Shown here: positions 1 to 57,921 of the stretch, one piece after another
How positions within the stretch are numbered: the first letter of the stretch is position 1
Layout: each line of letters begins with the position of its first letter
Notes under the pieces: generated by a model
Database searches by the model: none
Told to the model about the DNA's origin: nothing
The model's input: the letters and a program-made list of their open reading frames with translations, nothing else
Made by a program: the position numbers and the translations under genes
Assembly: GCA_965231215.1 (NCBI GenBank)
Contig: OZ246423.1
Coordinates: forward strand, 1,056,001 to 1,120,000
Origin: Candidatus Altimarinota bacterium
GTDB taxonomy: Bacteria > Patescibacteriota > Gracilibacteria > UBA4473
Direction: 5' to 3'
Length of the DNA: 64,000 nt

Positions 1-1785
1 CCAGGTTTCAGCAGGAGGATCTTCTGGCACAAGATAATCAGTCCCATCTACTTTAATGGTAGTCCTACCTGTAGGAAGTGGTGTTGGAGCTTCAAAATGT
101 GTATAAACTTTTTTTAGCTTATCTAAATCACCTTTATCTTTTTTATAGTCTTGGAGAGAGCTTTCCCAACTTTCTTGTAGCTCTTCAATTTTCTCAACAA
201 AACTGTCAATTTTGTTAAGGTATGCTTCAAGTAAAGTTTTTTCTTCTTGTGGTAGGTCATTGACTATACCTTCAACTTTTCTTTTAAATACTTCATGTTC
301 AGAGACAAAGGAACCTATTTCATCTAGTACGGTTTGATTTACATGTGATAGATTAATCACATCTTTTAATCCTCGACTTTTCCCTCGGGCTCCAAGACCG
401 TTGTTGACGAGTTTTTTAGCTTTTTCGAAGTGTTTTTTAACTTCATCTTTTTCAAATTTTTTAAATTCAGGAGAGAAAGCTACTTCTTTTTTGCCTAGAG
501 ATGTTTCCTCTTCAAGGTGAGCAATATAGCTCAAAAACTTTATTTTCAAACCTTTTGGCATAGAGCTTTTAATTAACGTAGTTCCAGCTGAAGTTTGTAA
601 GAACCGCGCATAAGCTACAAATTCTTGATAAGGATTCAGCTGATCCTTGTTTGGAAAGTGCTGAAAGAGTGTTTCTCTATTAACTATTCCCTGACTATCT
701 ACAAAAGGTTTTAGTTCTTTGAGTAAACCTGGGAGATCATTTTCTGGTGTTATTTCCTCACCAGGAACCTCTAACTTAGTCTTTATTGTATCAATCCTAA
801 GGCCACTTTGGGTGGCATCAAATCCATCTCGTCTGTCACGAGCCAGGGTTCTAATATCTAAATTTTCATCCAAAGCTGTAGTTTCTAGAACTTTGTTTAA
901 GTCTGTCTCATCCCAACCAAGTAGTTTATACATTTCTAATCTTTTTTCTTTTTCTAGCCCGCCAAAAAGAGATTTAGCAATATTGGTTGTAGCCGGATCG
1001 GTCATAATGTCATGTGTCAATGCTGGATCAAGCTCTTTTTCAACTCCTTCAATAATTTTTTTCTTTTGTTCGAAACTGAGGGTATCATTAAATTCTTGCT
1101 TAATTTGGCTCATTCTTTCGTTTTGGGCAGTTTCAACATCACTTTTCTTAGCGGCAATTTTTTCTTCTAGTTCAGAAAATACTTCATCGACAAAGCTAGC
1201 TCGGGTTTCAAAGTAAAATTTTTGTGAAGTGTTTGGGACACGATTACCTCCAAAGTTTTTCCAGAATCGGAAGAATTTCTTATTTTCTTCACTTTTGGTT
1301 CCGAGCTTAGTTTCGTATTCTCGTTGGTAGTTTTTTCGGAGGGTTTGAAGGGTGATAAGTGATCGGTTTACATTATCAATGGTGAGCACAGCTTCGTTTG
1401 AATTATCCTCAATATCACGAATCAGTCTTTGGTATTCAGCATTGTAGAAAACCCCATGAGAGCGTCGCCCTCGTAGTACATCAAAAATATCTTCTCTAGT
1501 TCTTTGCCTTAGGGTATCTATGTGCTTGTTCCAAGGCATTCGACCATTTTCAATATAGTCAGTCACCTCTAAGCCACGAATAGTACGGCTGTTGAAAGTA
1601 GTTAGGGCATCAATAGCTACTTCTTTGGCTTCGATTACTCGTGTTTTTTCTTCTTTTTCAGTACTTTTAGCCTTTAAAGCCTCAACTAAATCATCATTAA
1701 CTTCAGTGATGCGACCACTTGTATCTCTGTATACAAGAGGCTTAAATTGATTTAGTTGGTTCCTGAATTGTGGAAATAACTTCAT
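1..1785 (-). CDS. Large hypothetical protein, partial (>=595 aa, C-terminus outside the window)
   Basis: Not in the ORF track. Manual translation from ATG 1785: MKLFPQFRNQLNQFKPLVYRDTSGRITEVNDDLVEALKAK...; the same frame reads ...GTDYLVPEDPPAETW at position 1 (middle not translated codon by codon). Lys/Glu-rich helical; promoter directly upstream. Confidence 0.85.
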   Translation of the reverse strand, partial: MKLFPQFRNQLNQFKPLVYRDTSGRITEVNDDLVEALKAKSTEKEEKTRVIEAKEVAIDALTTFNSRTIRGLEVTDYIENGRMPWNKHIDTLRQRTREDIFDVLRGRRSHGVFYNAEYQRLIRDIEDNSNEAVLTIDNVNRSLITLQTLRKNYQREYETKLGTKSEENKKFFRFWKNFGGNRVPNTSQKFYFETRASFVDEVFSELEEKIAAKKSDVETAQNERMSQIKQEFNDTLSFEQKKKIIEGVEKELDPALTHDIMTDPATTNIAKSLFGGLEKEKRLEMYKLLGWDETDLNKVLETTALDENLDIRTLARDRRDGFDATQSGLRIDTIKTKLEVPGEEITPENDLPGLLKELKPFVDSQGIVNRETLFQHFPNKDQLNPYQEFVAYARFLQTSAGTTLIKSSMPKGLKIKFLSYIAHLEEETSLGKKEVAFSPEFKKFEKDEVKKHFEKAKKLVNNGLGARGKSRGLKDVINLSHVNQTVLDEIGSFVSEHEVFKRKVEGIVNDLPQEEKTLLEAYLNKIDSFVEKIEELQESWESSLQDYKKDKGDLDKLKKVYTHFEAPTPLPTGRTTIKVDGTDYLVPEDPPAETW

Positions 1786-1805
1786 TTTTGCGCAAAAATC
1801 CCATT

Positions 1806-1834
1806 ATTTTACCACAAAAAGGCTCAAAAAACAA
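1806..1834 (-). promoter_or_regulatory. Sigma70-type promoter with extended -10
   Basis: Minus strand TTGTTT-17 nt-TAAAAT in context TGTGGTAAAAT, 20 nt before ATG 1785. Confidence 0.65.
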
Positions 1835-1862
1835 GGGTGCCACACCTTTTTTAAACTTATAT

Positions 1863-4787
1863 TTATCGAACTTTTTGCTGCACTTTTTTGGTATAGTCTT
1901 TCATATCTCCTAAGACTTGCTTCATAACTTTGTCAGCGACCTCTTCCATACTAGTTCCAACTTGAGTTTTTTCAGCTCCAAAAGTCTGTGCCAAAGCACT
2001 AAAAGCTCTTTTTGCAAACATTTTCAATAATCTAATTTCTTCGCCATCGCCTTCTATGCTGTCGGAGGTATCAATGGCTACCGCTGAGTGTACTCCGGTT
2101 CCAATGATACCAGTTTCAATAATTTTTTTCATTTCTCGGAATCTTCCGGCACTATCAGCTCCGTCTCCAATGAGGTAAAAGGCTGGTCGATAATTTGGGA
2201 ATTTCTTTTTTTCTGCTTCTAAGTCTCTACTCGCTTTTTGAGTTGCTTCTACCATATAAGTACCTCCATTAGGTTTAACCTCTTTGATGATTCTTTTTTT
2301 AATGGTGCTTGGTTGACCGGTACTAAATTTTGATTTCTTTCTCCGGCCATCCATTGAGTAATCATCATCAAAACTTTTGATATCAGTTATTCCTTCAGCA
2401 AATAAAAAGGCCGCAAATCGAGTGTAACCAAGTTCTTTTTCAATTTTATCAAATAGCTCACAGAAGAAGAGAAGCATTTTCTTGGATTCCCTTTTATTTG
2501 GCGCCATAGAACCACTATCATCCAAGGCTACTACTGCCATGAATTTTGGCTTTGGTTCTTCTTCTTTAAGCACTCGAGGTTGGAATACTTTACCAGTCAT
2601 TCGGCTGGCAGGGCGCATTAAGGCGGACCTATCTAATTTACTTCCTTTCTGACGGTTCATATTTTCATCTATGACAAATACTCTTTTCTTTGGCAGTGCG
2701 CGAATGAATTTTTTGTACCACTTATCTACTAAAGGCAGAACTTCTTTTCTGAGTTCTAGATATTCTGCATAATCATGGTCTGCAATTTCTAGCTCTTGTT
2801 CAAGTCTTGCTAATTGATCAATGCCTTCTGTATTATCGAGTTTTTCATCCCACCTTTCTCTTTCGTGTTCCTCCATAAATCCATCTCCTTCAATTTGATC
2901 CAATTTTTGAGAAAAAATGTCCTTAAGGCGATCTACTTGTTCTTCACTGAGGTTTTCAAGCTCTTCTTTATAAGACTCAACTTTTTCATCTTGTGCAATT
3001 TCGTCCATAATATCTTTAATCTCTTGGGCACTTTGGGCTTTTCGTATTTCTTCGGAGTATTTTTTAGCCTGTTCAAAAGATTCTTTTTCGGCTTCGGCTT
3101 GAGCATCTTCACCCTCATCAATTTCCTGCATTTCATCTAAATCTTCATCTGGAGTAATCTCATCAGATATGTCTTCTTTCTCAGTGTTATCTTGGTCTTG
3201 ATTGTCACCTTCTGGTTTTTCTTCGGTTTGGGTTGGGGTCGGATCAATGGTCTGCCACATAGCCCCATCCCAAATCTCTACCCAGGCATGACCATCACTA
3301 TCGGTGATTTGTGATTTTCCGTCTTTGGTCTTGCTTACGGCAAATCCTCCAATAGACCTGCTAGGGATACTGAGTTTACGGCAGAAATCTATAAACAGGG
3401 TTGCAGCTGAGTGACATTCAATAGCCTCTTCGGCTTCGATATTAGGTAGATAATTTTCTGAAGTAGAAGTGCTATGCAGTCGACTCTGAGTATTAGCCGC
3501 ATCTGAAAGGTCTTGTCCGTCTCCTGGATATTTATATTTTTTTTGTATGTAACTAGCCAAGGCCTGAACTTTGGCCGTATTATTCAGGCTACTACTTTTA
3601 AGTTTTTTTAAGAGGTTTTCGGTATCTGAACTATAAGTTCCATTGTAGAGAATATCCGTATCAGCCGTTTCAGGATTGTCTTGAGGCTTGCTTCCTGTAT
3701 GCACAAACTCTACCGAAAAATCACCAGCACCTTTTGCTTTTAGGAAGAAGGCTCCTTTTTCATCTTTAAATATTTCACAATTGTTACCTGAAAATTGAAG
3801 AGTAGAGGCATCTACCTCATGCCCAGGAGGGAGGGGGAGAGCATCAAATTTTTCGCCTCCAGTGAGTTTAGCGTACATTCGGTACCTTTTGCTTCCGTTA
3901 GGACTTTCGTTATAAGGAGTTTTATTAGTTTTTGCATGCCAGTTTTTCCCAGACTTGTCATAATGACTGAATCGCTTTTTCACAAATTTACCAGTAGGGG
4001 CTTTACTGCCATCTACAGGTTCAATTTCATACCGGATCACAATATTAGGTTCGCCTTCTTTATTGGAAGGTTCTTCACTCATTGGTGGGGGCGTATAGTT
4101 TTCCTCATCTTCCGGGGCTGCAGCCATTTCTTCACGAGCTTTTTGAATTTCACCTGGATCATCCTGCTCCTCTTCAGGTGTATCCTCGGAATCATCCGGA
4201 GTATCTTCAGCATCATCTTCTGAATCATCAGGTTGATCTTGTGGTGAATCTGGAGGTTCTTCTTGACCTTCAGAGTCTTCAGGAGGAGTAGGTGGTTGTG
4301 GTTGAGGTGGGGTGGGAGGAGTAGATCCTTGGTTTACGTCTTTTAGTACGTTTTTAACATTGTGTTTGGTTCCTCCAGTCCATTTATCATACCATTTTCC
4401 GGCTCCTACAGCGTGGGCAATCTTTTTTAAAATACCATCTTTGGTTTCGGTGACTTCTGGCGCAATAACTTCATTTCGTTCAATCGCCCCAACTAGGCTT
4501 TGATAGTCTTGGGTTTTTAGTTCATGTCTAATTTTGGATACTCTTTTCCTGATTTTTTCTGTATCACCAATTTGGTCTTTAGGAAAGTGAATTTTATTAG
4601 GTCTAGGTGCATCATCTGGTAGAGCCTCTCCATTAAGAATACGTTTTTTGGTTTCTTCATCAAAACCTGGAGAGATACCCCATTTTTCACCTGCTACTAC
4701 TTTAATATCAGGGTCAGACAAGATCTCAGCTAATCGGTAAGCTTCTTGATCTTGTTTAAGCTGAGATGAGGCGGCTTCCGGATTCAT
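1863..4787 (-). CDS. Transglutaminase-like + vWA domain fusion protein
   Basis: Cys (ECHSAA), His/Asp (GHAWVEIWD...WQTIDPT) transglutaminase-like triad; C-terminal vWA with MIDAS DDSGS, GGT and IGDG; acidic Pro-rich linkers. Confidence 0.85.
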   Translation of the reverse strand: MNPEAASSQLKQDQEAYRLAEILSDPDIKVVAGEKWGISPGFDEETKKRILNGEALPDDAPRPNKIHFPKDQIGDTEKIRKRVSKIRHELKTQDYQSLVGAIERNEVIAPEVTETKDGILKKIAHAVGAGKWYDKWTGGTKHNVKNVLKDVNQGSTPPTPPQPQPPTPPEDSEGQEEPPDSPQDQPDDSEDDAEDTPDDSEDTPEEEQDDPGEIQKAREEMAAAPEDEENYTPPPMSEEPSNKEGEPNIVIRYEIEPVDGSKAPTGKFVKKRFSHYDKSGKNWHAKTNKTPYNESPNGSKRYRMYAKLTGGEKFDALPLPPGHEVDASTLQFSGNNCEIFKDEKGAFFLKAKGAGDFSVEFVHTGSKPQDNPETADTDILYNGTYSSDTENLLKKLKSSSLNNTAKVQALASYIQKKYKYPGDGQDLSDAANTQSRLHSTSTSENYLPNIEAEEAIECHSAATLFIDFCRKLSIPSRSIGGFAVSKTKDGKSQITDSDGHAWVEIWDGAMWQTIDPTPTQTEEKPEGDNQDQDNTEKEDISDEITPDEDLDEMQEIDEGEDAQAEAEKESFEQAKKYSEEIRKAQSAQEIKDIMDEIAQDEKVESYKEELENLSEEQVDRLKDIFSQKLDQIEGDGFMEEHERERWDEKLDNTEGIDQLARLEQELEIADHDYAEYLELRKEVLPLVDKWYKKFIRALPKKRVFVIDENMNRQKGSKLDRSALMRPASRMTGKVFQPRVLKEEEPKPKFMAVVALDDSGSMAPNKRESKKMLLFFCELFDKIEKELGYTRFAAFLFAEGITDIKSFDDDYSMDGRRKKSKFSTGQPSTIKKRIIKEVKPNGGTYMVEATQKASRDLEAEKKKFPNYRPAFYLIGDGADSAGRFREMKKIIETGIIGTGVHSAVAIDTSDSIEGDGEEIRLLKMFAKRAFSALAQTFGAEKTQVGTSMEEVADKVMKQVLGDMKDYTKKVQQKVR

Positions 4788-4792
4788 ATTAA

Positions 4793-7700
4793 TTAAATGT
4801 TATCAGCCGCCCGTGCAATTTCACCAGCAAGTTTTTCTCTAACACTGGCTTCATCATAGTGACTTAAATACTCTTCTTTAAGAAGGTCTAAAGCGACACT
4901 TCTAGGATCCGTAGCACTAGCCTCTACAAAATTACTGAGTCGATAAGCACATCGAGTTATGTCTCGAAGAGTAATAGGGTAGACAATATCTAAAATGTCA
5001 GTATTAGATTCAAAACCAGTGGGTTTATCGTTTACATATTGTTGTGCAAAATTGTATCTAATAACATCAGCCATTTTTACGAGCTCTAGAATTACTTGCA
5101 TATCAAATTGCTGTTTTTCATCAGCATCTATAGCTCCTGGAACTTGAGATCTATTTACATATTTATCCCACACCTTAACAAATTCGTTTTCTGATAAATC
5201 TGGATTATAAGTAAGATGTTGGAGTGAGTTAGTAGAACGAGCAATTTTTAAAGCTTCTGATGAAGCAAATTTTCTATCAAAAGGGGATTCTCCTAGTTCT
5301 TGTTTCCCATCTCTTCTGAGATGGTTATATTCAATTTCTATTTCTTGCATCCGACTTTTGGTTGCAGCTTGAGGGTCAAAGGTTCCTTCATATCCAGGAT
5401 TCATAGAACCTGCAATAACTACGCTCGGTTCCGTTTTAATAACTTTACCTCCACTAGTTTTTAGAGTCATTTGACGTTTACCATCCAAAAGAGAGTGTAA
5501 GAAAATTTGAGCTGACTCTGGCATCGCATTGAACTCATTAAAGTAGACTATCGCTCCTGGAGTTTGGATTCCTTCTACAATACTAGAAGGTACTTTTACA
5601 GTGTTTCCATCTTCTAGAAGGATTTCCTCACCCAAGTCAGCTTCAGTGGTCCATTTACTACAATCAAATGAAAAATAAGACCGGTTAGTATGATGAGCAA
5701 AAACTTGAAGTAAAACATCTTTACCAGTTCCAGTATGCCCCTTAAGCATAAGCATTCCTTCTTGCCTATCAGCCTGCATTTGGAATCTTTCAGCAATATC
5801 CTCAAGGTAACCTTGTTCTTCTTCACCAATAACCCAGCTTGGGTTTAGTTTTGGTACACCATTAATATATACCGGTTCAGAACTATTAATTTCATTTAAT
5901 TTCCTTTCGGCTTGTCTGAGATGAGGAATAAAATTTTGGGCACAGAATTCTGCGTATTGTTTGTAAAGAGTGGTGTATTGCTGTTTCCATTCTGGATTTT
6001 TTAGCTCTCCTTCTGGATGTTCCTCTGAAGGTTCGGTTCGTTCATTTTTTTCAGCGTATTTAGCTTTTAATCTGGTACGTAGGTCATCATGTTCTTTTTT
6101 TACATTGCCTCCGTTCATCCATTCATTAAGTAAACGAGAAATGTGTTTATATTGCTTTCGAGGAAGGTATCCTGGGGTAATTTCTTCACCTTTAGAATCA
6201 GCCCCAAGACGAAATTCTTGTTCTATACCTGTATCACCCCAGAGACGCTCTTGGGTTAGTTCACCTTTTTCATTGGTTATGGTGATACCAATATCTCCCA
6301 TAGCGGTTTTAGGATTATCGGTAAGAGTGGCTTGATTCATAATAAAGTCTAGCCGCGCGCTTTTTCGTCCACCTTTCTGAACTCGTTTCATAATTGGGGC
6401 ATTGATATGTCCAAAGGTATATACATTTTCTCCTCGGTCATTAGTTTTAGCATTTTGGCGTGCTATGATTTGGTTAATGACTTCGTAAGATTTTCGAGAA
6501 ATATCACTTTCTAATGCTTGAGCTTGAGGTACATTTTCAGACCGAATATCTTCAATTCCAGCTGTGATATTTTCAAAAGCTGGATCATTGGCAATAAATT
6601 CAGTTACCTCTTCTTTGGTAACCAGTCCAGATTCATTACTGAGAGTTTCAAAGTAATTATTAATATCGAGTTTAACATTTTCTACTTTTCTCATAAGAGC
6701 ACTTTCGGCTTCAGCACGAGCTTCTCCTCGTGCATCTTTAAAGCTACTTATTTTTTCTGCACAGATTCTGTGAATAGTTTCTTGAGATTGAAGAATGGCT
6801 AAACGAGCTTGTTCACCATCTTGTGAAGTTTGTTTGTAGTGTTCTTCCATACTTCTTAGATGGGCTATTCTTTCATTTCTATGCCAAACCATGTAGGCTT
6901 CATAAGTTTTTTTATTATCTATTTCACTTTCTACTTGTTCCACGATAGCCGCAAGGTCAGTTTCTAGACCGGATAGATGAGTTGTATAAAGGCTTTCTCT
7001 GTGAGATCGAGCGTTACTTAGAACTGCTTCAACATCCCTTTTAATGGTGCTTCCTTCTGCTAAAACTGGGTTAAAGTTTTGAAGAATTCGTAGACTCGGA
7101 GTTAGCTCATCCATTTGACTTGGACGTGAAGCTGCTTTGATTTTTGGCCCAACCTCGTTTACTAAAGCCTGGGCTCGATCTGTTTTTTTAGTTTCAATTT
7201 CATCGAAGATTGGTTTAAGGATGTAGTTTACATGAACTTCAGTAACGCCTCCGTCTTCTAGAGCTTGTTTTAATTCCGCTATAGATTTTTCAATGCCTCC
7301 AAAATCTTCGATAGTTTTGGCTTCATCTATTTGGGCACCAAGTCCATCTCTAATTTCTTTTGTTTTTTCATCTAATACTGGTTTTTCAGCATCGGTTACT
7401 TCATTTGGAGTTTCTTCACTTCCAGAAACAATAGAAGCAATATCAATACTGCTAGTTAATCGAATAGTCCGAATAGCATGTGAGAGCTCAGAAAGGTTTG
7501 ATTCACAGGTTTTAAGGTTTCCTTGGTCATCAATGATTTGTACTTGAGTTTCGGTAGTAGTGAAATCCTGAATCCCATCATATTGGAATAAAATTTCACC
7601 ATCATGTAGACCGATGAAGTAGATTTTTCCTTCTTCAGTAAGAATATTGATTATTTCTCCTCCTGGTACTTCTTTAATTTTTTTTACTTTTGAGTTTCGG

Positions 7701-8596
7701 ATTTCCTCAGGAAGTCGAATTGCATTCTTACTAGCTTCGTCTTCGTGGTTGAAAGTTACATGATAAAGATATTCTGGTTTTTCTTTGTCACAATAACTTA
7801 GACCGTCTCGAGATTTAGTTACGGCAGGATTCTGAATATTATCACTCAAAAACTCGTTCCCTCCATTATTGAGACTAACTACTTTTACTCCATTTCTATT
7901 AACGAGTGCTAGAAGCCTTCCATCTAAAGCTACAACATCATGGTTTTGTAAATCTAGACCATCTATTTGTCCATATATACTTTTGAGATCTTCATCTTGT
8001 TCATAGTTAAAAATAGTGAAACGTTTCCAATTATGTGGTGGCTCTGTTTGACCTTGCTCGTTGGTAGTTTTGAATATGATTTTTTCCCCTTTAGAATCAT
8101 AAAAAATGATGAATTTACCATCATCCAAAATGGCTGGCGTTCTGACTGGAACAAACTGACTTTGGACTAGCTGGCTGACTGCGATTTCACCAGAATTATT
8201 AGTTTGTATATTAATCAATTGTTTAAGTCTAGCGGCTTTTGTAGGATCGATTCCCTCTAGTTGATCTACACCACAGAGATTTCCATAAGTACTATCAATA
8301 ATGCTTATTGTGTCGGCGTCTTCTTTTTCTTCAGGTAATGTAAGACCTTCTTTTTCGAGCCATTGGTTTATGGTGTATTCGAGCTTTAGCTCATTTTCTG
8401 TAAAACTAGTATCCTCTATACCTTGATGATCTAGCACTCTTACAGTGCTGCCATCGATATAAAAAGAACAGTTTTTCCAAGAAAGTAGTTCACTACCTTC
8501 GGGGATTTGTTTTGCATTGAAGTCTTCAACGCGTTTGAAACTTGGGGAAGGCAGCCCTAAGTTTTTGTCCGCAGCCGTTTCATGTGATTTTGCCAT
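4793..8596 (-). CDS. Large MoxR/AAA_5-type AAA+ ATPase with N-terminal beta-rich and coiled-coil regions
   Basis: C-terminal module GHTGTGKD, FDCSKWTTEADLG, VYFNEFN, LHSLLD, SMNPGYEGT, ATKSR, ITLRD typical of MoxR/CbbQ/midasin-like AAA+. Confidence 0.85.
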   Translation of the reverse strand: MAKSHETAADKNLGLPSPSFKRVEDFNAKQIPEGSELLSWKNCSFYIDGSTVRVLDHQGIEDTSFTENELKLEYTINQWLEKEGLTLPEEKEDADTISIIDSTYGNLCGVDQLEGIDPTKAARLKQLINIQTNNSGEIAVSQLVQSQFVPVRTPAILDDGKFIIFYDSKGEKIIFKTTNEQGQTEPPHNWKRFTIFNYEQDEDLKSIYGQIDGLDLQNHDVVALDGRLLALVNRNGVKVVSLNNGGNEFLSDNIQNPAVTKSRDGLSYCDKEKPEYLYHVTFNHEDEASKNAIRLPEEIRNSKVKKIKEVPGGEIINILTEEGKIYFIGLHDGEILFQYDGIQDFTTTETQVQIIDDQGNLKTCESNLSELSHAIRTIRLTSSIDIASIVSGSEETPNEVTDAEKPVLDEKTKEIRDGLGAQIDEAKTIEDFGGIEKSIAELKQALEDGGVTEVHVNYILKPIFDEIETKKTDRAQALVNEVGPKIKAASRPSQMDELTPSLRILQNFNPVLAEGSTIKRDVEAVLSNARSHRESLYTTHLSGLETDLAAIVEQVESEIDNKKTYEAYMVWHRNERIAHLRSMEEHYKQTSQDGEQARLAILQSQETIHRICAEKISSFKDARGEARAEAESALMRKVENVKLDINNYFETLSNESGLVTKEEVTEFIANDPAFENITAGIEDIRSENVPQAQALESDISRKSYEVINQIIARQNAKTNDRGENVYTFGHINAPIMKRVQKGGRKSARLDFIMNQATLTDNPKTAMGDIGITITNEKGELTQERLWGDTGIEQEFRLGADSKGEEITPGYLPRKQYKHISRLLNEWMNGGNVKKEHDDLRTRLKAKYAEKNERTEPSEEHPEGELKNPEWKQQYTTLYKQYAEFCAQNFIPHLRQAERKLNEINSSEPVYINGVPKLNPSWVIGEEEQGYLEDIAERFQMQADRQEGMLMLKGHTGTGKDVLLQVFAHHTNRSYFSFDCSKWTTEADLGEEILLEDGNTVKVPSSIVEGIQTPGAIVYFNEFNAMPESAQIFLHSLLDGKRQMTLKTSGGKVIKTEPSVVIAGSMNPGYEGTFDPQAATKSRMQEIEIEYNHLRRDGKQELGESPFDRKFASSEALKIARSTNSLQHLTYNPDLSENEFVKVWDKYVNRSQVPGAIDADEKQQFDMQVILELVKMADVIRYNFAQQYVNDKPTGFESNTDILDIVYPITLRDITRCAYRLSNFVEASATDPRSVALDLLKEEYLSHYDEASVREKLAGEIARAADNI

Positions 8597-8616
8597 TTTT
8601 TAATATAAACGAGCAA

Positions 8617-11600
8617 TTAAGGGGTAATACTAAAAGTAACTTCACCTGATGGGTGAACTTTTGCCGCTACCTCAGGAATTCCATTGGCAGGATCGGCTTT
8701 TTGTATTCGATAAAAATTTCCATTTGCTAGAATCTGTGATCCAGCAAAAAATCCAGCATCTCCTGGTTTTGAAGGGAAAGAAAACTCTCCAAGACCAGTT
8801 TTTTCAAAAAGTAATTTAATTTTCTTACCTAAAGCTCCAGTAACCGTAATAGAATTATTTGGAGCATTTGTAAGTTCCTGAACTCTTAGACTTTTGGTTT
8901 GTTTTGTGAAGTAAGTTGCATTCTCTAATGTAATAGCGTCAGGATTAAGTATTTCTAGTTTTTCAGTTTTTGGTTTTGTTACTGGTTCTTTTGGGAGCTT
9001 AGTAATTTGGAAAAAACTTAAACTTCCATCAGCATTCTCAACTTTTTCAATACGAATTCTTGAACCATCAATTTTACTAGTAAGTATGTTACCTTCTAGG
9101 ATGGCGTTAGCTTCAATCAACTCCATTTTTCCTTTTCTGGTAATGAAAAGTACATTTCCTGAACCGTCTTGGAAATTTAGATCTTTAGCCTCTCTTACCA
9201 GTTCAGTTATTTCATGAGTGTTGTTGTCTTTAAGTTTATCTGTGTTTATGTTTTTACCTTCTTTGGCTGATCCTAGACCGGCTTCAGCGGCCTTTCTAGA
9301 TTGAACTTTTCGTCCAACGGTATAGACTTCGTAGAAAGTACTACCGTCTTTATTCACAATTTTGCTATGAGCATCTTTAATTCCGGCCTCTTGTAATTGT
9401 CTTACGACGGTATTGGCTTCTTCTAGAGTTCGATGTTGAGAGACTGGATCACCTTTTTCTCCTTGTTTTTCAAGTTTTTTAATGAGTTCATTTCTCTGTG
9501 CTTCCAACTTTCGTTGTCTTGTCTCATGTTTGTTTTTTCTAAACCTCTTTGGAGTTTTTTCACTATGCTGTTGTATTTGATCATTCAGATTTTGAAGCTC
9601 ATTTACTGTCGTATTCTTTTTTGGTAGTGAAGTGAGGTGGACTTCGTAGATTGGTTTTTCTCCGCTAGTGACTTCTTTGATTTTTCCTGTAGCGCCAGTT
9701 TCTTGGATTTCTTTGAGTACCGCTTCTGCTTCGGTTCGGTTTTCATGCTTAGAAACTGACTCATTCTTATTGGCAGCTTCTTGCATTTGCTTAAGCAGTT
9801 GTGATCTTTCACCTTCTAATCTTCGGAGCTCTCGCCCTCGCCACAAAGCCTTAGCTTTACCTCCTTTTATTAAGGTTGGTTCTGGCATGGCTCTAAGTTC
9901 AGCAATACTGGCATTAACATCTTTTAATGCATCTGGGGCTGATTTTGGTTCCGCTTTAAGTAATTCTTGTCGGTATTGTCGTCGAAGTTCTCGATATTTT
10001 TGATTAATAGCGGCTATATCTTCTCTTCCTTTTAATACGGCTTCTTGGGCTATATCTCTGGCATCTTGAAGTTCTTTGATATGATCCGCGTTGTCCTCTT
10101 TCTTAGCTTTAGCCTCAACCAGTTGTTGTTCTTTTTGTCTGAGAGTTTTTTCAGCTTCGCTAAGTCTTTGACGGGCTTCAAGTTCTTTGACTCTGTTTTG
10201 ACGCATAGATCCGTGATACTTCGCTTCGGCGGCTCTTCCTTGAGCCGATTCTGTTTTTCGAATAGAGCCCCAAAGTCTTTTAACAGGGGCAGGAATCCAA
10301 TTTTGTCTTTTTGGTTTGACCCCCAATGAAGGAGGCCTGCTAACAGTTATAGTAGGGCTATGAGCTGCGATAACTTCAGGTTTAGTTTGAGGTTTTCCAT
10401 TGGCGCCTATTTCGGTAAATTCGAACGTTACATTATCACCTTTTTTTTGAGTAATTTTTCCCCTTCTTAATTTTCCATCTTTTTTTATAATGACGGGTTC
10501 TCCAGCGATGAATGGTTCCCCATTTATGTTTACAATGTCATGGGTCAATTGTGTATCAATTTCGTTGATCTGTTTCTTGGTGGCCTTGATTTTTGCTTCT
10601 ATGGCTTTTTGTGTTTTATCATGAGCTTCTTTTTTAATTTTTTTATTTGTAAGGTCGTTTTGTAGCGCTCGACTTTGAGCCTCTAGAGTTTCTAGGTCTC
10701 TTTGTCTAGCTTCTTTTTGTTTTTTGAGGTTAAACTTATAGGCTTCAACGGGGTCTTTTGGTGTTCTGGCAAAGAAATCTTTGGCTCTTTCTTTCATTTG
10801 TTTTCGCGCCTTTGGGGCTAAGCTGGCTACTTTTTTGGGTTCAGCACCCCGGCCTAATTGTGGAAGTAAGAAAAACAGCATCCACTCTTTGGCAAATTGT
10901 TCACCGCTCATTTCATGTCCAATGTGTCCATTGGTGGCGCTGTGCGCAGTGGTAGCTGTAATGGCCATGAGTCCACTATCAAATCCAGTTCGGAGGGTTC
11001 TTTGAGCTAGGTAATTTCCAAAACCGCTTCGGGTTCTTTTTCCAGTATTTCGTACAGCCCAGTTTGGAAGAGTTTCTCCAAGGGTTCGTACTTCCTGGAT
11101 GCCTAATTTTTGCATTCCTTTTCCATAAACAAAATTTCCTCCTCGGAATACGTTGAACATAAGGGCACTCATAAGGTTTCCGTTGAGAGAAGTATCCATT
11201 TGTCCTTCAACGATCATGTTTTGGGCTTGGTTAAACATTAACCCCTCGAAAGAAGCAGCTCCAATTCCAGCAGCTAGTCTGGCGCCTCGGATACTATTGG
11301 CTTTAGCGCCAACATTAGCTACTGCGTCAGCTCCAGCCATGGCTGCGGCTGCCCATGAAAGTCCTTTTGCAGCGGCCCATCTAGCTCCTGCGGCTAGGCC
11401 TCCAGAGACCAATATAAGTGGAATATTGATGGCAATTTCTTTCCAAATCCAATCTTTGGTAGTTTCGGTCATATCCCATCCTTTCTCTAGTCCATGAATA
11501 TCTTGATAATCGGTTAAAGCTTCCGCGACTAGACCATCAACTCCAAGGTCACTAGCGGTTTTTTCGTTAATAGCAAAGTGAAGCTTGGCTCGATCAATCA

Positions 11601-13524
11601 TTTGATCACGCGTATAGGTGCGGTCTACTTTAGAAAGCATTTCAAGTACTTTGTAGGCCACATTTTTTACTTCAGTCACGTCGCTTGGGTTGCTGGCTTT
11701 GAATTTTGTCTCAGTATTATTTTTGGGGTCTCTGATAGTGAGTTCCTCCCCACTAGCCAGTTGACCTCTTATGCGTTCAGCAGTTCCATCATCTTCAAAT
11801 TTATTAATAATTTCACTTACACTTGGTAGATCATCATCAATGTCTTCAATTTCGTCTCGAACATCGTTATCACTTACTTTTGATTTAGCTTCTAAGATTT
11901 TAGGGTGACCAGCAAAGAGTGATCCATACATCTCTGCTGCGGCATCGTACAAACTTTCATCATGGAAAAGTCTTTTAGCAAGAGCTAATTGAGCTTTTTT
12001 GAATTTTGCCACATCTTTAAGAGAAACAGCCCCAGCGGGTTTATGAATACCAGCATCAACTACATCAGAAGACTGCCAAAACTTTAAATAAGTTTTATGG
12101 AATTGGTCTAGGGTAGTACTAAGCGCTGGCTTATTCGATTTTAGCTTCACAATAGCACTTTCTAGGTCAGTAGCTGCGCCAGAGATAATAAGTCCTTGCA
12201 GAGTGTTTGTAAGTTCAGTGTATTTTTGTGCATCTCGTATAATGGCATTATCTGCCTGAGAGGTGGCACTGCTTTCAAACGCATTTTGAATGGCCCATTC
12301 ACCTTGTCTGTCTAAAGCGAGTGAGTTTATATAACTTCTATAGAGTGTTAGTCCGGTAACATCCTGAGTTTTAGCTACCAGGGTGTTTTCCATGGCCTCA
12401 ATTGACCCCAGTATTTTTTCAACTTGGGTTCCAACTTCTGCATCACTTTTTAGACTTTCTAAAAGATCTTTAGCTTTTTTAGTGTTTTCTTCCTTATTAG
12501 TTGTAAGTAACCATTGAGCTTCAAAAATTGTTCTTTGGTTGGCTGAGAATTTTGGATTTTTAGAAAGTTTTTCAAATAGCTCTGAAGTTTCTTTTGGAGT
12601 GGTTGGAAGAGTTTCGCCTGTAGCGATATAAAATTCCATTTTAGCCACTATTTCCTCGCGTTCCTCTGGTTTATGCTGATTAAGCCAGGTGAATACATCT
12701 TTGTATTCTACAAAGGCGGAATGAGCGGTGTTAAACTTTTTAAAATCTCCCGCTACATCTGGAGGCAAAGAGGTCAGAGGGATGGTTAGATCTAGAATCT
12801 GAGATTCAACCTCCGTAGTAGCAATATTGGTTCCAGTATTTACTGGAGGTTTAGGACATTGGTCACTTTCTATGGCACTGATAACCGCACCAGTATTTAT
12901 GTTTATGGTTACGAGTTTTCCATCTATACATTCTGTTTTAGTTTTTACTTCAGGGTGTGGTCTTTCAGACTCTAGAGGTTGATCATCTCTTGGTGGGGGT
13001 TCTTGTTGTTGAGTGTCGATTCTGATTTTCCCATCTAGGTACTCTCCAGAAGCAATAGCTTCATGATTGTCGAGCCTTACATTCTGTCGTTTTTTCTTTC
13101 TTCTCCCTTGGCTGTCGGTGTAGTAAGTTATTTTTTGAGCTTTTCCAGAGTACTGGATTTTGAACCAATAATGATCAGCTCCACCACTATTTCCACTAGT
13201 ATCATGAGTTTTATCTTCAAGCCCTAAAATTTTCACTTTAGCGCCCTTTGGCACCACGAAATCTTCCTCATGATCACCGGCATGAGTTCTGAGTCTTAGT
13301 CCAGTGTGAAGTGTAATAATTCTTGAATGAGTATTTTCAATGATGACTTGCTTTTTGAGTTCATCCAGATTTAGACCTGTTCTCATTGAGAGTATTTCAA
13401 GTTGATCAGATAAGCTCCCCTCTACATGCGCATCAGTGCCTCTCTCCACATTGTTGGGGGAGGGCTTTTTCCAGACGAATTTAGTTGCCTGAGGGTCTTG
13501 GGTAAAAGTAAATACTAGTTTCAT
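8617..13524 (-). CDS. Giant 1635-aa protein: SH3b-like N-terminal domain, central Gly/Ala-rich hydrophobic helices, coiled coil, two SPOR-like repeats
   Basis: Long ORF. GLRLRTH...VPKGAKVKILG...YWFKIQY resembles SH3_3; IAINIPLILVSGGLAAGARWAAAKGLSWAAAAMAG is hydrophobic; duplicated ~65-aa unit near the C-terminus. Domain calls by eye. Confidence 0.75.
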   Translation of the reverse strand: MKLVFTFTQDPQATKFVWKKPSPNNVERGTDAHVEGSLSDQLEILSMRTGLNLDELKKQVIIENTHSRIITLHTGLRLRTHAGDHEEDFVVPKGAKVKILGLEDKTHDTSGNSGGADHYWFKIQYSGKAQKITYYTDSQGRRKKKRQNVRLDNHEAIASGEYLDGKIRIDTQQQEPPPRDDQPLESERPHPEVKTKTECIDGKLVTININTGAVISAIESDQCPKPPVNTGTNIATTEVESQILDLTIPLTSLPPDVAGDFKKFNTAHSAFVEYKDVFTWLNQHKPEEREEIVAKMEFYIATGETLPTTPKETSELFEKLSKNPKFSANQRTIFEAQWLLTTNKEENTKKAKDLLESLKSDAEVGTQVEKILGSIEAMENTLVAKTQDVTGLTLYRSYINSLALDRQGEWAIQNAFESSATSQADNAIIRDAQKYTELTNTLQGLIISGAATDLESAIVKLKSNKPALSTTLDQFHKTYLKFWQSSDVVDAGIHKPAGAVSLKDVAKFKKAQLALAKRLFHDESLYDAAAEMYGSLFAGHPKILEAKSKVSDNDVRDEIEDIDDDLPSVSEIINKFEDDGTAERIRGQLASGEELTIRDPKNNTETKFKASNPSDVTEVKNVAYKVLEMLSKVDRTYTRDQMIDRAKLHFAINEKTASDLGVDGLVAEALTDYQDIHGLEKGWDMTETTKDWIWKEIAINIPLILVSGGLAAGARWAAAKGLSWAAAAMAGADAVANVGAKANSIRGARLAAGIGAASFEGLMFNQAQNMIVEGQMDTSLNGNLMSALMFNVFRGGNFVYGKGMQKLGIQEVRTLGETLPNWAVRNTGKRTRSGFGNYLAQRTLRTGFDSGLMAITATTAHSATNGHIGHEMSGEQFAKEWMLFFLLPQLGRGAEPKKVASLAPKARKQMKERAKDFFARTPKDPVEAYKFNLKKQKEARQRDLETLEAQSRALQNDLTNKKIKKEAHDKTQKAIEAKIKATKKQINEIDTQLTHDIVNINGEPFIAGEPVIIKKDGKLRRGKITQKKGDNVTFEFTEIGANGKPQTKPEVIAAHSPTITVSRPPSLGVKPKRQNWIPAPVKRLWGSIRKTESAQGRAAEAKYHGSMRQNRVKELEARQRLSEAEKTLRQKEQQLVEAKAKKEDNADHIKELQDARDIAQEAVLKGREDIAAINQKYRELRRQYRQELLKAEPKSAPDALKDVNASIAELRAMPEPTLIKGGKAKALWRGRELRRLEGERSQLLKQMQEAANKNESVSKHENRTEAEAVLKEIQETGATGKIKEVTSGEKPIYEVHLTSLPKKNTTVNELQNLNDQIQQHSEKTPKRFRKNKHETRQRKLEAQRNELIKKLEKQGEKGDPVSQHRTLEEANTVVRQLQEAGIKDAHSKIVNKDGSTFYEVYTVGRKVQSRKAAEAGLGSAKEGKNINTDKLKDNNTHEITELVREAKDLNFQDGSGNVLFITRKGKMELIEANAILEGNILTSKIDGSRIRIEKVENADGSLSFFQITKLPKEPVTKPKTEKLEILNPDAITLENATYFTKQTKSLRVQELTNAPNNSITVTGALGKKIKLLFEKTGLGEFSFPSKPGDAGFFAGSQILANGNFYRIQKADPANGIPEVAAKVHPSGEVTFSITP

Positions 13525-13545
13525 TGCGCGCGAAAATATCAGGTG

Positions 13546-13575
13546 ATTTTACCACATTTTTGACTAAAAATCCAG
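13546..13575 (-). promoter_or_regulatory. Extended -10 promoter for the giant-protein cluster
   Basis: Minus strand TGTGGTAAAAT about 21 nt upstream of ATG 13524, identical core to the promoter at 1806-1816. Confidence 0.6.
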
Positions 13576-13681: not shown

Positions 13682-15445
13682 ATGAGTGACAAAAAGCCAG
13701 TTATCGTCAAAGTTTCAGGGCCATTAGTTGTGGCCGATAACATGTCTCACGCAAAGATGTACGAGGTAGTACGGGTGGGGGACGAAGGACTCGTAGGAGA
13801 GGTAATCCGACTTGAAGGAAATGAAGCCTATGTTCAAGTCTATGAAGAAACAGCCGGAGTCGGCCCAGGAGAGCCTGTAGAAACAACAGGAAAAACTCTT
13901 TCTGTAGAGTTGGGGCCAGGGCTTTTGGAGTCTATTTATGATGGAATTCAACGACCTCTCGGAGTATTAGAAGAAAAATCAGGCTATTTCCTAGCTCGCG
14001 GGATTGACGCTGATGGTCTAGATCAAAATAAAAAATGGGATTTTGTGGCTACGGTCTCTACCGGGAACACGGTTGAAGCTGGAGACACTATCGGAACGGT
14101 TCAAGAAACGACACTGATTCTGCATAAAGTGATGGTTCCAGCTGAAGTAAAAGGCAAAGCTAAAGTAAAATCTATTGAGTCTGGTCACTTTAAAGTGAGT
14201 GATACGGTAGCCGTAGTAGAAGATGAAGAGGGGAAAGAACATAACGTAGCCATGCGTCAGTACTGGCCAATTCGAAACAGCCGAAAAATTAATCGAAAAT
14301 TAATTCCATCCGAACCACTGCGTTCTGGATGTAGATCAATTGATACATTCTTTCCGTTGGTGAAAGGAGGTGCCGGATGTATCCCTGGGCCATTTGGTTC
14401 TGGGAAAACCGTAACGCAACAATCTCTGGCTAAATACTGTGATGCACAAGTAATTATATACATCGGTTGTGGAGAGCGAGGGAATGAGATGACAGAAGTA
14501 CTAAATGAGTTCCCCCATCTGATCGATCCAAATAGTGGAGAGCCACTCATGAAACGAACGGTGATGATTGCCAATACGTCGAACATGCCAGTAGCGGCTC
14601 GTGAGGCGAGTGTGTACACCGGCATTACTATTGCTGAATATTATCGAGACATGGGATACAACGTAGCCCTCATGGCTGATTCTACTTCACGATGGGCAGA
14701 AGCCATGCGTGAGATGTCAGGACGTCTTGAAGAGATGCCTGGGGAAGAAGGATATCCAGCTTACCTAGGGTCTAAAACGGCTGAGTTCTATGAACGAGCT
14801 GGAGCGGTTGAATGTCTTGGATCTGAAGGCCGAACAGGTAGCCTTACCGTAATTGGAGCCGTATCGCCTCCAGGAGGAGATCTTTCTGAACCTGTATCAC
14901 AAAATACACTTCGAGTGACTAAAACTTACTGGGGACTGGATTCTAAGTTGTCATACCAGCGTCACTTCCCAGCCATCAATTGGCTTAAATCATACTCTCT
15001 GTACACCCCAAATATTGAGAAGTACATGAAAGAAGAAGTAGCTCAAGATTACTGGGAGATTCGAGAAACAGGTATGAACCTCCTGCAAGAAGAATCTAAA
15101 CTACAAGAAATTGTACGTCTAGTTGGGCCAGACGCGCTTTCTGTGCGAGAAAAATTAGTATTACTTACAGCCAAATCTATTCGTGAGGATTTCCTCTACC
15201 AAGATAGTTTTGATGCAGAAGATGCCTACACTATTCCTCAAAAGCAATACCAAATGCTTAAGACTATTGTAACGTTATACCACGAAGGAATGAAGCTCGT
15301 TGATAGAGAAGAATTTGATTTCAGCAAAGTAGAAGAATCACCAGTAATTCAAGAAATTGCCAACGTGAAAAATCTTTCAAAAGAGGAAACAGAAGATTAT
15401 GAAAAAGTGCGACAAAACATTACTAAAGAAATTGGAGCACTCTAG
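13682..15445 (+). CDS. atpA: V/A-type ATP synthase catalytic subunit A
   Basis: GPFGSGKT P-loop, GCGERGNEM, ANTSNMPVAAREAS, MADSTSRWAEA, PGEEGYPAYL, plus the non-homologous region characteristic of V/A-type A subunits. Confidence 0.97.
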   Translation: MSDKKPVIVKVSGPLVVADNMSHAKMYEVVRVGDEGLVGEVIRLEGNEAYVQVYEETAGVGPGEPVETTGKTLSVELGPGLLESIYDGIQRPLGVLEEKSGYFLARGIDADGLDQNKKWDFVATVSTGNTVEAGDTIGTVQETTLILHKVMVPAEVKGKAKVKSIESGHFKVSDTVAVVEDEEGKEHNVAMRQYWPIRNSRKINRKLIPSEPLRSGCRSIDTFFPLVKGGAGCIPGPFGSGKTVTQQSLAKYCDAQVIIYIGCGERGNEMTEVLNEFPHLIDPNSGEPLMKRTVMIANTSNMPVAAREASVYTGITIAEYYRDMGYNVALMADSTSRWAEAMREMSGRLEEMPGEEGYPAYLGSKTAEFYERAGAVECLGSEGRTGSLTVIGAVSPPGGDLSEPVSQNTLRVTKTYWGLDSKLSYQRHFPAINWLKSYSLYTPNIEKYMKEEVAQDYWEIRETGMNLLQEESKLQEIVRLVGPDALSVREKLVLLTAKSIREDFLYQDSFDAEDAYTIPQKQYQMLKTIVTLYHEGMKLVDREEFDFSKVEESPVIQEIANVKNLSKEETEDYEKVRQNITKEIGAL

Positions 15446-27847: not shown

Positions 27848-27937
27848 ATTAAGATTTGGTAGTTTTGGTCACACGCTTTGATTTGGTTCATACTTTAAGT
27901 GTGTTAAAATTTGGGCTGAAATAATTCACAAAATTTT

Positions 27938-56482: not shown

Positions 56483-56890
56483 ATGAAAAAATCTAAAAAT
56501 CATATTCGGGGGTTTAAAGTACTTTCGGTGTTCGCTTTTTTTCTGCATCTCTGTATTGTGATTTTATTTTTTAGTTCGCCGTTTTTGCCTTTTTGGTGGC
56601 AAATAACATTTTTAGTTTTGGGCGTGGTAACACTGCCTCTTCGAATTCTGTTTTTTGAGGGGAAATGCCCCTTTACTGGGTGGGAGAGGTATTGTCGTAG
56701 AGAAGCCGGGGATATGAAGGCCAAAATTCACACACACACTTTTATGGAGGCTTATTTTGGTATGCCAGATGCTGTTTTCAAAAAAGTTGAAAAAAGTATC
56801 ATGGGACTTTTGGTCATCACGATACTTTTTTATATTTTTATGGGACAAAGTTTGTGGCAGTGGTGTTTTACCGCTCTTGTCCAAACATAA
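56483..56890 (+). CDS. DUF2784-like small membrane protein
   Basis: LH in TM1, CPFTGWERYCR, FMEAY. Confidence 0.7.
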   Translation: MKKSKNHIRGFKVLSVFAFFLHLCIVILFFSSPFLPFWWQITFLVLGVVTLPLRILFFEGKCPFTGWERYCRREAGDMKAKIHTHTFMEAYFGMPDAVFKKVEKSIMGLLVITILFYIFMGQSLWQWCFTALVQT

Positions 56891-57890: not shown

Positions 57891-57921
57891 TTTTTTTTAG
57901 ATTGTATACCAAGTTAAAAAT

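Follow-up and report, generated by a model that had tools for sequence, protein, structure and literature searches.

A conserved gene pair of a MoxR-type ATPase and a transglutaminase–vWA protein in Patescibacteria, and its possible role as a soluble thiol-enzyme machine

Four long open reading frames (ORFs) fill the first 13,575 nt of a 64,000-nt stretch of a Candidatus Altimarinota bacterium genome (Patescibacteriota; Gracilibacteria; assembly GCA_965231215.1, contig OZ246423.1, positions 1,056,001 to 1,120,000), called the window below. They raise the question of whether such large neighbouring genes belong to a single system, and what that system would do. An original prediction had read the two middle products as a MoxR-type ATPase (P0002) and a fusion of transglutaminase-like (TGase) and von Willebrand factor A (vWA) domains (P0003), together a dedicated machine that acts on the giant proteins encoded on either side (P0001 and P0004). 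The cluster itself is as described there: in the ORF list all four genes lie on the minus strand and run in one direction, with intergenic gaps of 20, 5 and 77 nt.

8617-13524 (-): P0001 ORF, 1635 aa
4793-8596 (-): P0002 ORF, 1267 aa
1863-4787 (-): P0003 ORF, 974 aa
1-1785 (-): P0004 ORF, more than 595 aa, running off the window edge

P0002 and P0003 are a dedicated two-gene unit, and only these middle two of the four genes are conserved. A word-index search with P0003 returned only P0003 itself. When 1.84 billion cluster representatives were searched exhaustively with HMMER, the number of matching proteins was 446 at E ≤ 1e-3, falling to 110 at E ≤ 1e-10 and to 41 at E ≤ 1e-30, and about 25 of the relatives are full-length, at 29–35% identity. 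Gene linkage was examined in a set of loci (L numbers below) obtained by scanning one genome per GTDB species with one peptide pattern and keeping the best 80 of 305 confirmed relatives; all stop-to-stop ORFs of these loci were searched with P0001 to P0004. Neighbouring genes were likewise taken as stop-to-stop ORFs under the standard code, under which genes of lineages that read UGA as a residue, as Gracilibacteria do, may appear fragmented. Relatives with dependable titles come from Peri-/Peregrinibacteria, Levy-, Davies-, Roizman-, Kerfeld-, Uhr- and Paceibacteria, Parcubacteria and Gracilibacteria. Proteins from records titled Gammaproteobacteria, Methyloversatilis, Pseudomonadales and Sulfotelmatobacter (L009, L010, L013, L017, L024, L027, L037, L040, L046 and others) nest at short distances inside Patescibacteria clades, and these titles are probably mislabels.

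Fifty of the 80 loci hold a full-length TGase–vWA relative and are referred to as group 1. An ATPase relative lies directly upstream on the same strand in 47/47 group 1 loci with both positions in view; at L005, L018 and L045 the contig stops at the TGase–vWA gene and the ATPase position is out of view. The ATPase relatives are about 1300 aa long (1263–1451 aa where complete) and their partners about 1050 aa, and 1–33 nt separate the ATPase stop from the first ATG of the partner in 41 of the 47. L021 has a tandem duplicate of the ATPase gene, and at L017, L039 and L043 one of the two genes is seen as two ORFs. The predicted pairing of ATPase and TGase–vWA protein, and the synteny of their genes elsewhere, are therefore upheld.

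The same cannot be said of the flanking giants as clients of the machine. P0001 and P0004 have no relatives in the 80 loci (phmmer E ≤ 1e-3; BLASTP 1e-3) or in the large searches described below, and a Pfam scan that took in the pair's two closest genes to either side (73 proteins upstream, 85 downstream) found neighbours that differ from locus to locus and are mostly housekeeping, such as FtsA, SecY, EF-G, IMPDH, ClpB, IspG, TrmD, FtsZ, aminoacyl-tRNA synthetases and ribosomal proteins S7 and S12. A co-directional neighbour of at least 800 aa lies directly upstream in 3 of the 32 loci with enough flank (ClpB, an ATPase fragment and one orphan) and directly downstream in 1 of 37. Both large neighbours without a known function belong to L047, one on each side (1301 and 1496 aa), and neither is similar to P0001 or P0004. 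Three other group 1 loci (L001:4373-8482, L044:12343-16312 and L046:12190-16179) share a convergent downstream gene pair encoding a protein of about 1190–1240 aa and one of about 123–127 aa without a Pfam family; the large proteins are homologous to one another and unrelated to P0001 and P0004.

A FastTree phylogeny of 64 proteins, which is a quick tree with long branches, separates group 1 (47 rows including the window) from a second clade, group 2 (17 rows), with 100% local support. Within group 1, L047 and the window form two long basal branches, and the program warns about precisely that join. As the clades follow the dependable candidate phyla radiation (CPR) labels, mostly vertical descent is suggested.

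For P0003, an AlphaFold2 model was built from a 60-sequence alignment (mean predicted local distance difference test score, pLDDT, 77.5). The model begins with a small N-terminal domain (residues 1–105) and a disordered, acidic, proline-rich stretch (107–210), followed by four parts.

3699-4040 (-): TgpA-like beta-sandwich before the catalytic core, residues 250-363 (AlphaFold2 and Foldseek)
3240-3668 (-): transglutaminase-like thiol enzyme core, residues 374-516, with Cys458, His500 and Asp515
2697-3116 (-): helical linker from enzyme core to vWA domain, residues 558-697 (AlphaFold2)
1869-2690 (-): vWA domain with a metal ion-dependent adhesion site (MIDAS), residues 700-973, comprising D756-x-S758-x-S760, T828 and D875

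The enzyme core is recognised by Pfam Transglut_core (residues 393–516, E 2.8e-12), and its Cys458-His500-Asp515 triad is invariant in 60/60 aligned family members. The Pfam VWA_2 match (residues 752–876) is sub-threshold at 18.2 bits against a cut-off of 27. The vWA assignment nevertheless stands because the MIDAS residues D756, S758, S760 and D875 are invariant in all 60 sequences, with T828 nearly so (the DxSxS codons lie at 2508-2522), and because the fold matches NorD VWA and Rea1 MIDAS domains. In Foldseek the top match of the model is the TgpA domain of Pseudomonas aeruginosa (E 2e-11, template modelling (TM) score 0.60 on the target), followed by NorD VWA from NorQD complexes (E 2.7e-8 and weaker) and then by Rea1/MDN1 MIDAS; integrin I domains are matched as well. 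TgpA is also the single PDB protein matched by the family profile (E 4.2e-7). A TGase triad and a MIDAS in one chain, which had been singled out as unusual, are thus a property of the whole family. Neither P0002 nor P0003, nor the relatives of either, has a signal peptide-like or membrane segment, hydrophobic stretches occur in 6 of 70 TGase–vWA relatives and all lie within the vWA part, and P0003 is predicted to be soluble. CPR-C4 (PMC9108980, cited from the available part of its text), a small vasohibin-like protease of the same superfamily, was considered and rejected as a relative, being absent from the PDB sequence searches and from the listed Foldseek matches.

P0002 is a MoxR-type ATPase, as first called. 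Its Pfam AAA_5 match (residues 949–1083, E 1.2e-17) reaches 64.6 bits against a cut-off of 22, and its only sequence matches among solved structures are CbbQ and NorQ (E 4e-14 to 4e-11 with the ATPase profile). Some 925 residues precede this module. An AlphaFold2 model of residues 1–930 from a 37-sequence alignment (mean pLDDT 83.7) shows propeller-like four-strand repeats at about 20–366, helices at 405–715, a small beta domain at 716–812 and further helices, so that the beta-rich and coiled-coil extension of about 900 aa noted at the outset is real, conserved and, in the model, made of a beta-rich, propeller-like part and long helices.

7499-8539 (-): beta-rich, propeller-like domain, residues 20-366 (AlphaFold2 and Foldseek)
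6452-7384 (-): long alpha-helical region, residues 405-715 (AlphaFold2 secondary structure)
4796-5824 (-): AAA+ module, large domain and lid, residues 925-1267 (Pfam and PDB sequence matches)
5717-5740 (-): deviant Walker A motif GHTGTGKD, Lys-Asp replacing Lys-Ser/Thr (translation)
5534-5545 (-): deviant Walker B motif YFNE, Asn-Glu replacing Asp-Glu (translation)

Foldseek with the N-terminal model lists propeller-plus-solenoid proteins at low overall TM score and WD40-type propellers at 0.41–0.53 (target-normalised), a resemblance that is taken as one of generic fold class rather than kinship. The P0002 family lacks the canonical Walker signatures, GK plus Ser/Thr in Walker A and Asp-Glu in Walker B: G-K-D and N-E stand in their place in 39/39 sequences (P0002 and 38 homologues). 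K959, D960, N1020, E1021, N1066 and R1082 are invariant in the family alignment, and N1066 and R1082 are presumably the sensor-1 residue and the arginine finger. Mean pairwise identity is 0.66 in the AAA+ large domain, the most conserved segment of either protein, and 0.27 in the propeller, the fastest-evolving part of P0002, a pattern consistent with a functional motor that carries a recognition module evolving more quickly. Judged from the sequences, the exchange of Walker A Thr for Asp and Walker B Asp for Asn may represent a compensated rearrangement of the Mg-nucleotide site rather than a loss of function, in which the Mg2+ ligand would shift from a hydroxyl to a carboxylate and an amide in Walker B would compensate. 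As the Walker A Ser/Thr and the Walker B Asp are replaced, ATP hydrolysis by P0002 should not be assumed.

Group 2, which comprises at least 19 of the remaining loci and encodes TGase–vWA fusions of 860–915 aa, is linked to reverse transcription. A reverse transcriptase of 331–380 aa is encoded directly upstream of the TGase–vWA gene at L054, L057, L058, L060, L061, L062 and L064, and L053 and L070 hold reverse transcriptase fragments. Repeat pairs of 112–146 nt with 87–90% identity lie just upstream of the reverse transcriptase in the four loci tested, and of the 14 mismatches in the L057 pair 13 coincide with an adenine in the template, the copy closer to the reverse transcriptase. Because adenine-biased repeat mismatches beside a reverse transcriptase are characteristic, the group 2 cassettes, at L054, L057, L058, L060–L064 and others, are regarded as diversity-generating retroelements. 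At L057:5064-12058 the order is an AAA_5 target gene with a 3' variable repeat, the template repeat, the reverse transcriptase gene and the TGase–vWA gene, the variable copy lying at the 3' end of the gene for an 892-aa AAA_5 protein. AAA_5 proteins of 873 and 891 aa are encoded in the equivalent position at L058 and L061, and an AAA_5 protein of 561–599 aa followed by small genes at L054, L060 and L064. The group 2 ATPases carry an ordinary GK plus Thr/Ser and are only remotely similar to P0002. At L053, L067, L070, L073, L074, L076, L079 and L080 an AAA_5 protein of 551–1066 aa, with an ordinary Walker A, is encoded after rather than before the TGase–vWA gene, and reverse transcriptase relatives or fragments are found near that gene at L053, L067, L070 and L076.

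No reverse transcriptase relative is present among the ORFs of the window, on which no repeat search was made, and 46 of the 47 other group 1 rows likewise have none nearby; L018 is the only group 1 locus that has one, a 758-aa RVT_1 protein encoded directly downstream of the TGase–vWA gene (L018:3131-5404). CPR retroelement targets with AAA/midasin-like motifs have already been published (Wu et al. 2018, PMC5758913, quoted in bioRxiv 10.1101/2023.09.22.558884; these and the other papers cited here were available in part, and statements about them concern those parts). A TGase–vWA gene adjoining such retroelements is not mentioned in the searchable literature texts, supplements aside.

How might the window pair work? 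A gene triad offers the closest precedent: the products of the MoxR–vWA–YebA/TgpA operon have been predicted to degrade proteins near the membrane in an ATP-dependent manner, with the vWA protein as recruiter, MoxR as unfoldase and the transglutaminase-like domain as the cleaving enzyme (PMC3495828), and the TgpA domain has transglutaminase activity in vitro (PMC3507681). The association of MoxR, vWA and TGase proteins that the original prediction took as established is thus found in the available text of that work. For the adaptor side, a finger of the NorD VWA domain inserts into the pore of NorQ, which in turn remodels a linker of NorD (PMC13036017); the helical linker of P0003 may be analogous to that linker. 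We consider the chances to be about even that the P0002–P0003 operon encodes a variant of the triad, namely a soluble, cytoplasmic, ATP-driven and vWA-coupled thiol peptidase or transglutaminase machine. By homology, P0002 would form a ring through its CbbQ/NorQ-like AAA+ module and the C-terminal vWA domain of P0003 would dock on that ring, as NorD does on NorQ; a complex prediction with two copies of the AAA+ module and the vWA domain (score 0.00, mark 0.32) speaks neither for nor against such binding. The MIDAS site, together with the ring formed by the N-terminal beta-propellers, would hold a client. An ATP-driven pull or twist on the helical linker would then present the client to, or gate, the Cys-His-Asp centre, and this TgpA-like centre would cleave or cross-link it. 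In most genomes clients are not encoded beside the pair; here, P0001 may serve as a lineage-specific client or anchor. Nothing examined points to the host attachment or attack that had been entertained for the locus, and both core proteins are devoid of signal peptides and membrane segments.

Several observations weigh against this proposal. The residues of Walker A and Walker B normally needed for Mg-ATP handling are both replaced, and the VWA_2 match of P0003 falls below its Pfam cut-off. The window pair is also a long basal branch, with a best identity of 31% for P0003 and of 14–16% for the N-terminal domains of the ATPase, and may have diverged in function. Finally, the retroelement link of the sister clade favours a role in recognition or conflict over one in general protein turnover.

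Comparison with described systems shows how far the precedents extend. The MoxR–vWA (DUF58)–YebA/TgpA operon (Zhang and Aravind 2012, PMC3495828; TgpA PMC3507681, structure 6g49) brings together the same three domain types, and the beta-sandwich and catalytic core of P0003 are closest to TgpA by profile and by fold, with the triad kept. However, that system has three genes and the present one two, with the transglutaminase-like and vWA domains fused; YebA has eight membrane helices (PMC3495828) and P0003 none. P0002 is about four times larger than the MoxR protein of the triad, with its propeller and helical extension and deviant Walker motifs, and the P0002–P0003 family is confined to Patescibacteria-type genomes in the scan of GTDB species. 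The actinobacterial Esr pathway, with MoxR, vWA and a separate transglutaminase, was also considered and was rejected as a different, surface-directed system.

NorQ–NorD and CbbQ–CbbO, of the CbbQ/GvpN/NorQ branch, supply the closest solved AAA+ relatives, and the P0003 vWA fold matches that of NorQ-bound NorD. In NorD and CbbO the vWA domain lies at the C-terminus after a linker, and P0003 is likewise built of an N-terminal part, a linker and a C-terminal vWA domain; to our knowledge neither NorD nor CbbO contains a thiol-enzyme domain. NorQ and CbbQ are proteins of about 270–380 aa, and in the two compared at the level of single residues Walker A has GK[TS] and Walker B begins with aspartate, unlike in P0002. 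The targets of NorQD and CbbQO, cNOR and Rubisco, are encoded nearby, whereas no conserved neighbour gene lies beside the P0002–P0003 pair. Midasin (Rea1) similarly combines AAA_5 modules with a MIDAS domain, and its MIDAS fold is among those matched by P0003. Midasin is a single giant chain of six AAA modules that is not known to contain a thiol enzyme domain; here each chain has one AAA module and the MIDAS is on a separate protein.

MoxR–vWA ternary conflict systems (Kaur et al. 2020, PMC7159879) resemble the pair in joining a MoxR–vWA core with a peptidase-type domain and a beta-propeller. They differ in that no conserved third component (VMAP, inactive STAND or FtsH) lies beside P0002–P0003, in that the propeller is on the ATPase here and on the vWA protein there, and in that P0002 has no match to the bpMoxR family in the Pfam scan. 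CPR genomes were excluded from the multicellularity statistics of that study, as its available text states. A protein that does match bpMoxR (PF20030, of MoxR–vWA–beta-propeller systems) is encoded at L048:5498-11368; it is 1246 aa long and is followed by a 702-aa transglutaminase-like protein. The CPR retroelements that target AAA/midasin-like genes (PMC5758913) are likened to the pair by the pairing of AAA_5 and TGase–vWA genes in both sets and by the position of the P0003 sister clade within such cassettes; there, either the 3' end of the ATPase gene or a small gene downstream of it carries the variable repeat, and no propeller match was seen. Set against the defining features of each described system, the pair lacks membrane anchoring and a three-gene layout, canonical Walker motifs, a target gene or third component, and a retroelement. 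An NCBIfam scan gave nothing relevant for P0001 to P0004, and the literature searched on MoxR, transglutaminase, vWA, Patescibacteria/CPR and retroelements yielded no description of the exact P0002–P0003 architecture, which agrees with its having gone unrecognised at first sight.

An 11-base extended -10-like motif, TGTGGTAAAAT, has only two exact copies in the whole 64-kb window, and these precede P0001 and P0004.

13546-13556 (-): promoter-like extended -10 motif, exact TGTGGTAAAAT, about 20 nt 5' of the P0001 start codon
1806-1816 (-): second exact copy of the promoter-like motif, inside the 77-nt gap, about 20 nt 5' of the P0004 start

A copy with one mismatch at 27900-27910 (+), 28 nt 5' of the start of a 6-phosphogluconate dehydrogenase gene, suggests that the motif is the usual extended -10 element of the organism, and we infer a promoter function for it. 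The 20-nt gap between P0001 and P0002 contains no promoter-like motif, and P0001 is probably co-transcribed with the pair in this genome. P0001, P0002 and P0003 would then share one transcript, and P0004 would have its own because of the exact motif copy in the gap upstream of it. No terminator is claimed for that 77-nt gap, since its hairpin is no stabler than those of shuffled sequence (z -0.05).

P0001 itself has one hydrophobic segment (residues 693–715) and coiled-coil-like stretches. Its description as wall-binding-like was not confirmed: no Pfam family lies above cut-off, and the sole basis would be a SPOR match of 16.9 bits against a cut-off of 21, in which no single stretch passes. 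Two weak SPOR-like segments near the C-terminus were spotted by eye only, and a self-BLAST for repeats listed none. Searching 5.8 billion clustered proteins with P0001 matched only P0001 itself. P0004 has no Pfam or NCBIfam family in the library scans, its search against longer proteins returned nothing, not even its own sequence, and ESM Atlas look-ups gave no usable matches for either protein. P0004 is an orphan and is not established as part of the system of the pair; nor is its label as a giant confirmed, as the ORF is cut by the window edge.

These results also bear on what else the pair might be. A possible, though not a likely, alternative is that the same machine serves biological conflict or partner recognition: the propeller, or the diversified C-terminal domain in the sister clade, would sense a foreign or host molecule and a MoxR–vWA switch would release a transglutaminase-like effector, the window pair being the germline-encoded counterpart. 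The sister clade speaks for it, with its full local support, adjoining reverse transcriptases and template and variable repeats whose target is an AAA_5 protein, and so does the propeller as the fastest-evolving domain. MoxR–vWA pairs moreover lie at the centre of predicted conflict systems, of which some include peptidase or propeller components (PMC7159879), and retroelement-diversified MoxR-associated sensors have already been proposed (bioRxiv 10.1101/2023.09.22.558884). Against this, the window has no reverse transcriptase and group 1 a single locus with one, the group 2 ATPases have an ordinary Walker A and are only remotely like P0002, and the scanned neighbours include no VMAP, iSTAND or FtsH component. 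P0002 does not match bpMoxR, and PADLOC gave no match to P0002 or P0003 except one that is marginal and unrelated. The housekeeping neighbours, and clades that track dependable CPR labels as under mostly vertical descent, also sit poorly with a conflict role. A four-gene system as originally envisaged, with P0001 and P0004 as the proteins that the ATPase and the TGase–vWA protein mature, cross-link, cleave or deploy, perhaps on the cell surface, appears unlikely. P0001 does lie 20 nt upstream of the ATPase gene with no promoter-like motif between them and has a hydrophobic segment and weak SPOR-like repeats, and the equally divergent L047 has large orphans on both sides. Those orphans are dissimilar to P0001 and P0004, however, which are without relatives; 1 of 32 loci has a large co-directional neighbour of unknown type upstream and 1 of 37 has such a neighbour downstream, P0004 has a promoter-like motif of its own and the pair has no secretion signal.

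Very unlikely, in our assessment, is an assembly chaperone of the NorQD/CbbQO type that remodels one enzyme or complex for cofactor insertion or activation, with the transglutaminase-like domain acting mainly as a binding module. The CbbQ and NorQ structures as nearest ATPase relatives, the NorD-like vWA fold and its place at the C-terminus after a linker are all as such a chaperone would have them, but the triad invariant in 60/60 sequences argues for catalysis, and no conserved target gene adjoins the pair as it does in the nor and cbb clusters. The least probable of the alternatives, in our view, is an ATPase that has become a pseudo-enzyme, a nucleotide-independent scaffold positioning the TGase–vWA protein. 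Both residues that normally handle Mg2+ do differ from the canonical ones, with Asp at the Walker A Ser/Thr position and Asn at the Walker B Asp position. Decayed sites usually drift, though, and here the replacements are identical in 39/39 sequences, the Walker lysine, the Walker B glutamate, N1066 and R1082 are invariant, and no other part of either protein is as conserved as the AAA+ large domain.

The preferred reading, a soluble ATP-driven thiol-enzyme machine, would make the family a two-protein form of the widespread and functionally unsolved MoxR–vWA–transglutaminase triad, and such a soluble pair ought to lend itself more readily to reconstitution than the membrane-bound TgpA systems do. 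The genomes of Patescibacteria measure about 1 Mb, and many of them devote about 7 kb to the pair, which is therefore probably important in the little-understood biology of these bacteria. The strict Lys-Asp/Asn-Glu exchange constitutes a natural experiment on how an AAA+ site holds Mg-ATP, and the kinship with retroelement-diversified AAA_5/TGase–vWA cassettes provides a handle on the purpose of the abundant CPR diversity-generating retroelements. More speculatively, and with considerable doubt on our part, Patescibacteria may carry two versions of one recognition-and-processing machine of AAA_5 motor and TGase–vWA protein, one with a sensor rewritten by a retroelement and the other, to which the window pair would belong, with a fixed beta-propeller and a rewired Mg-nucleotide site (Lys-Asp/Asn-Glu). 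The pair would then act as an immune-like or host-recognition switch, cutting or cross-linking a propeller-bound target, and might recruit lineage-specific large envelope proteins such as P0001 in fast-evolving lineages, of which the present one is an example.

The remaining genes of the window are ordinary bacterial ones: a V/A-type ATPase A subunit, an FKBP, a two-component pair, HisRS, pentose-phosphate enzymes, PNPase, DnaA, leucine biosynthesis genes and two proteins with S-layer homology (SLH) repeats and a CAP (cysteine-rich secretory protein) domain. Scans of the window for tRNAs and Rfam families gave no matches. The gene for the catalytic A subunit of the V/A-type ATPase (13682-15445, +) is solitary: the FKBP gene follows it, and no further V-ATPase subunit genes adjoin it. 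The SLH–CAP proteins are tandem paralogues of about 340 aa at 56868-58956 (-) and are probably wall-anchored surface proteins. The dnaA gene lies at 49643-51052 (-), and the cumulative GC skew of the window has its minimum at about 10–12 kb and its maximum at about 56–58 kb, turning points that lie away from dnaA.

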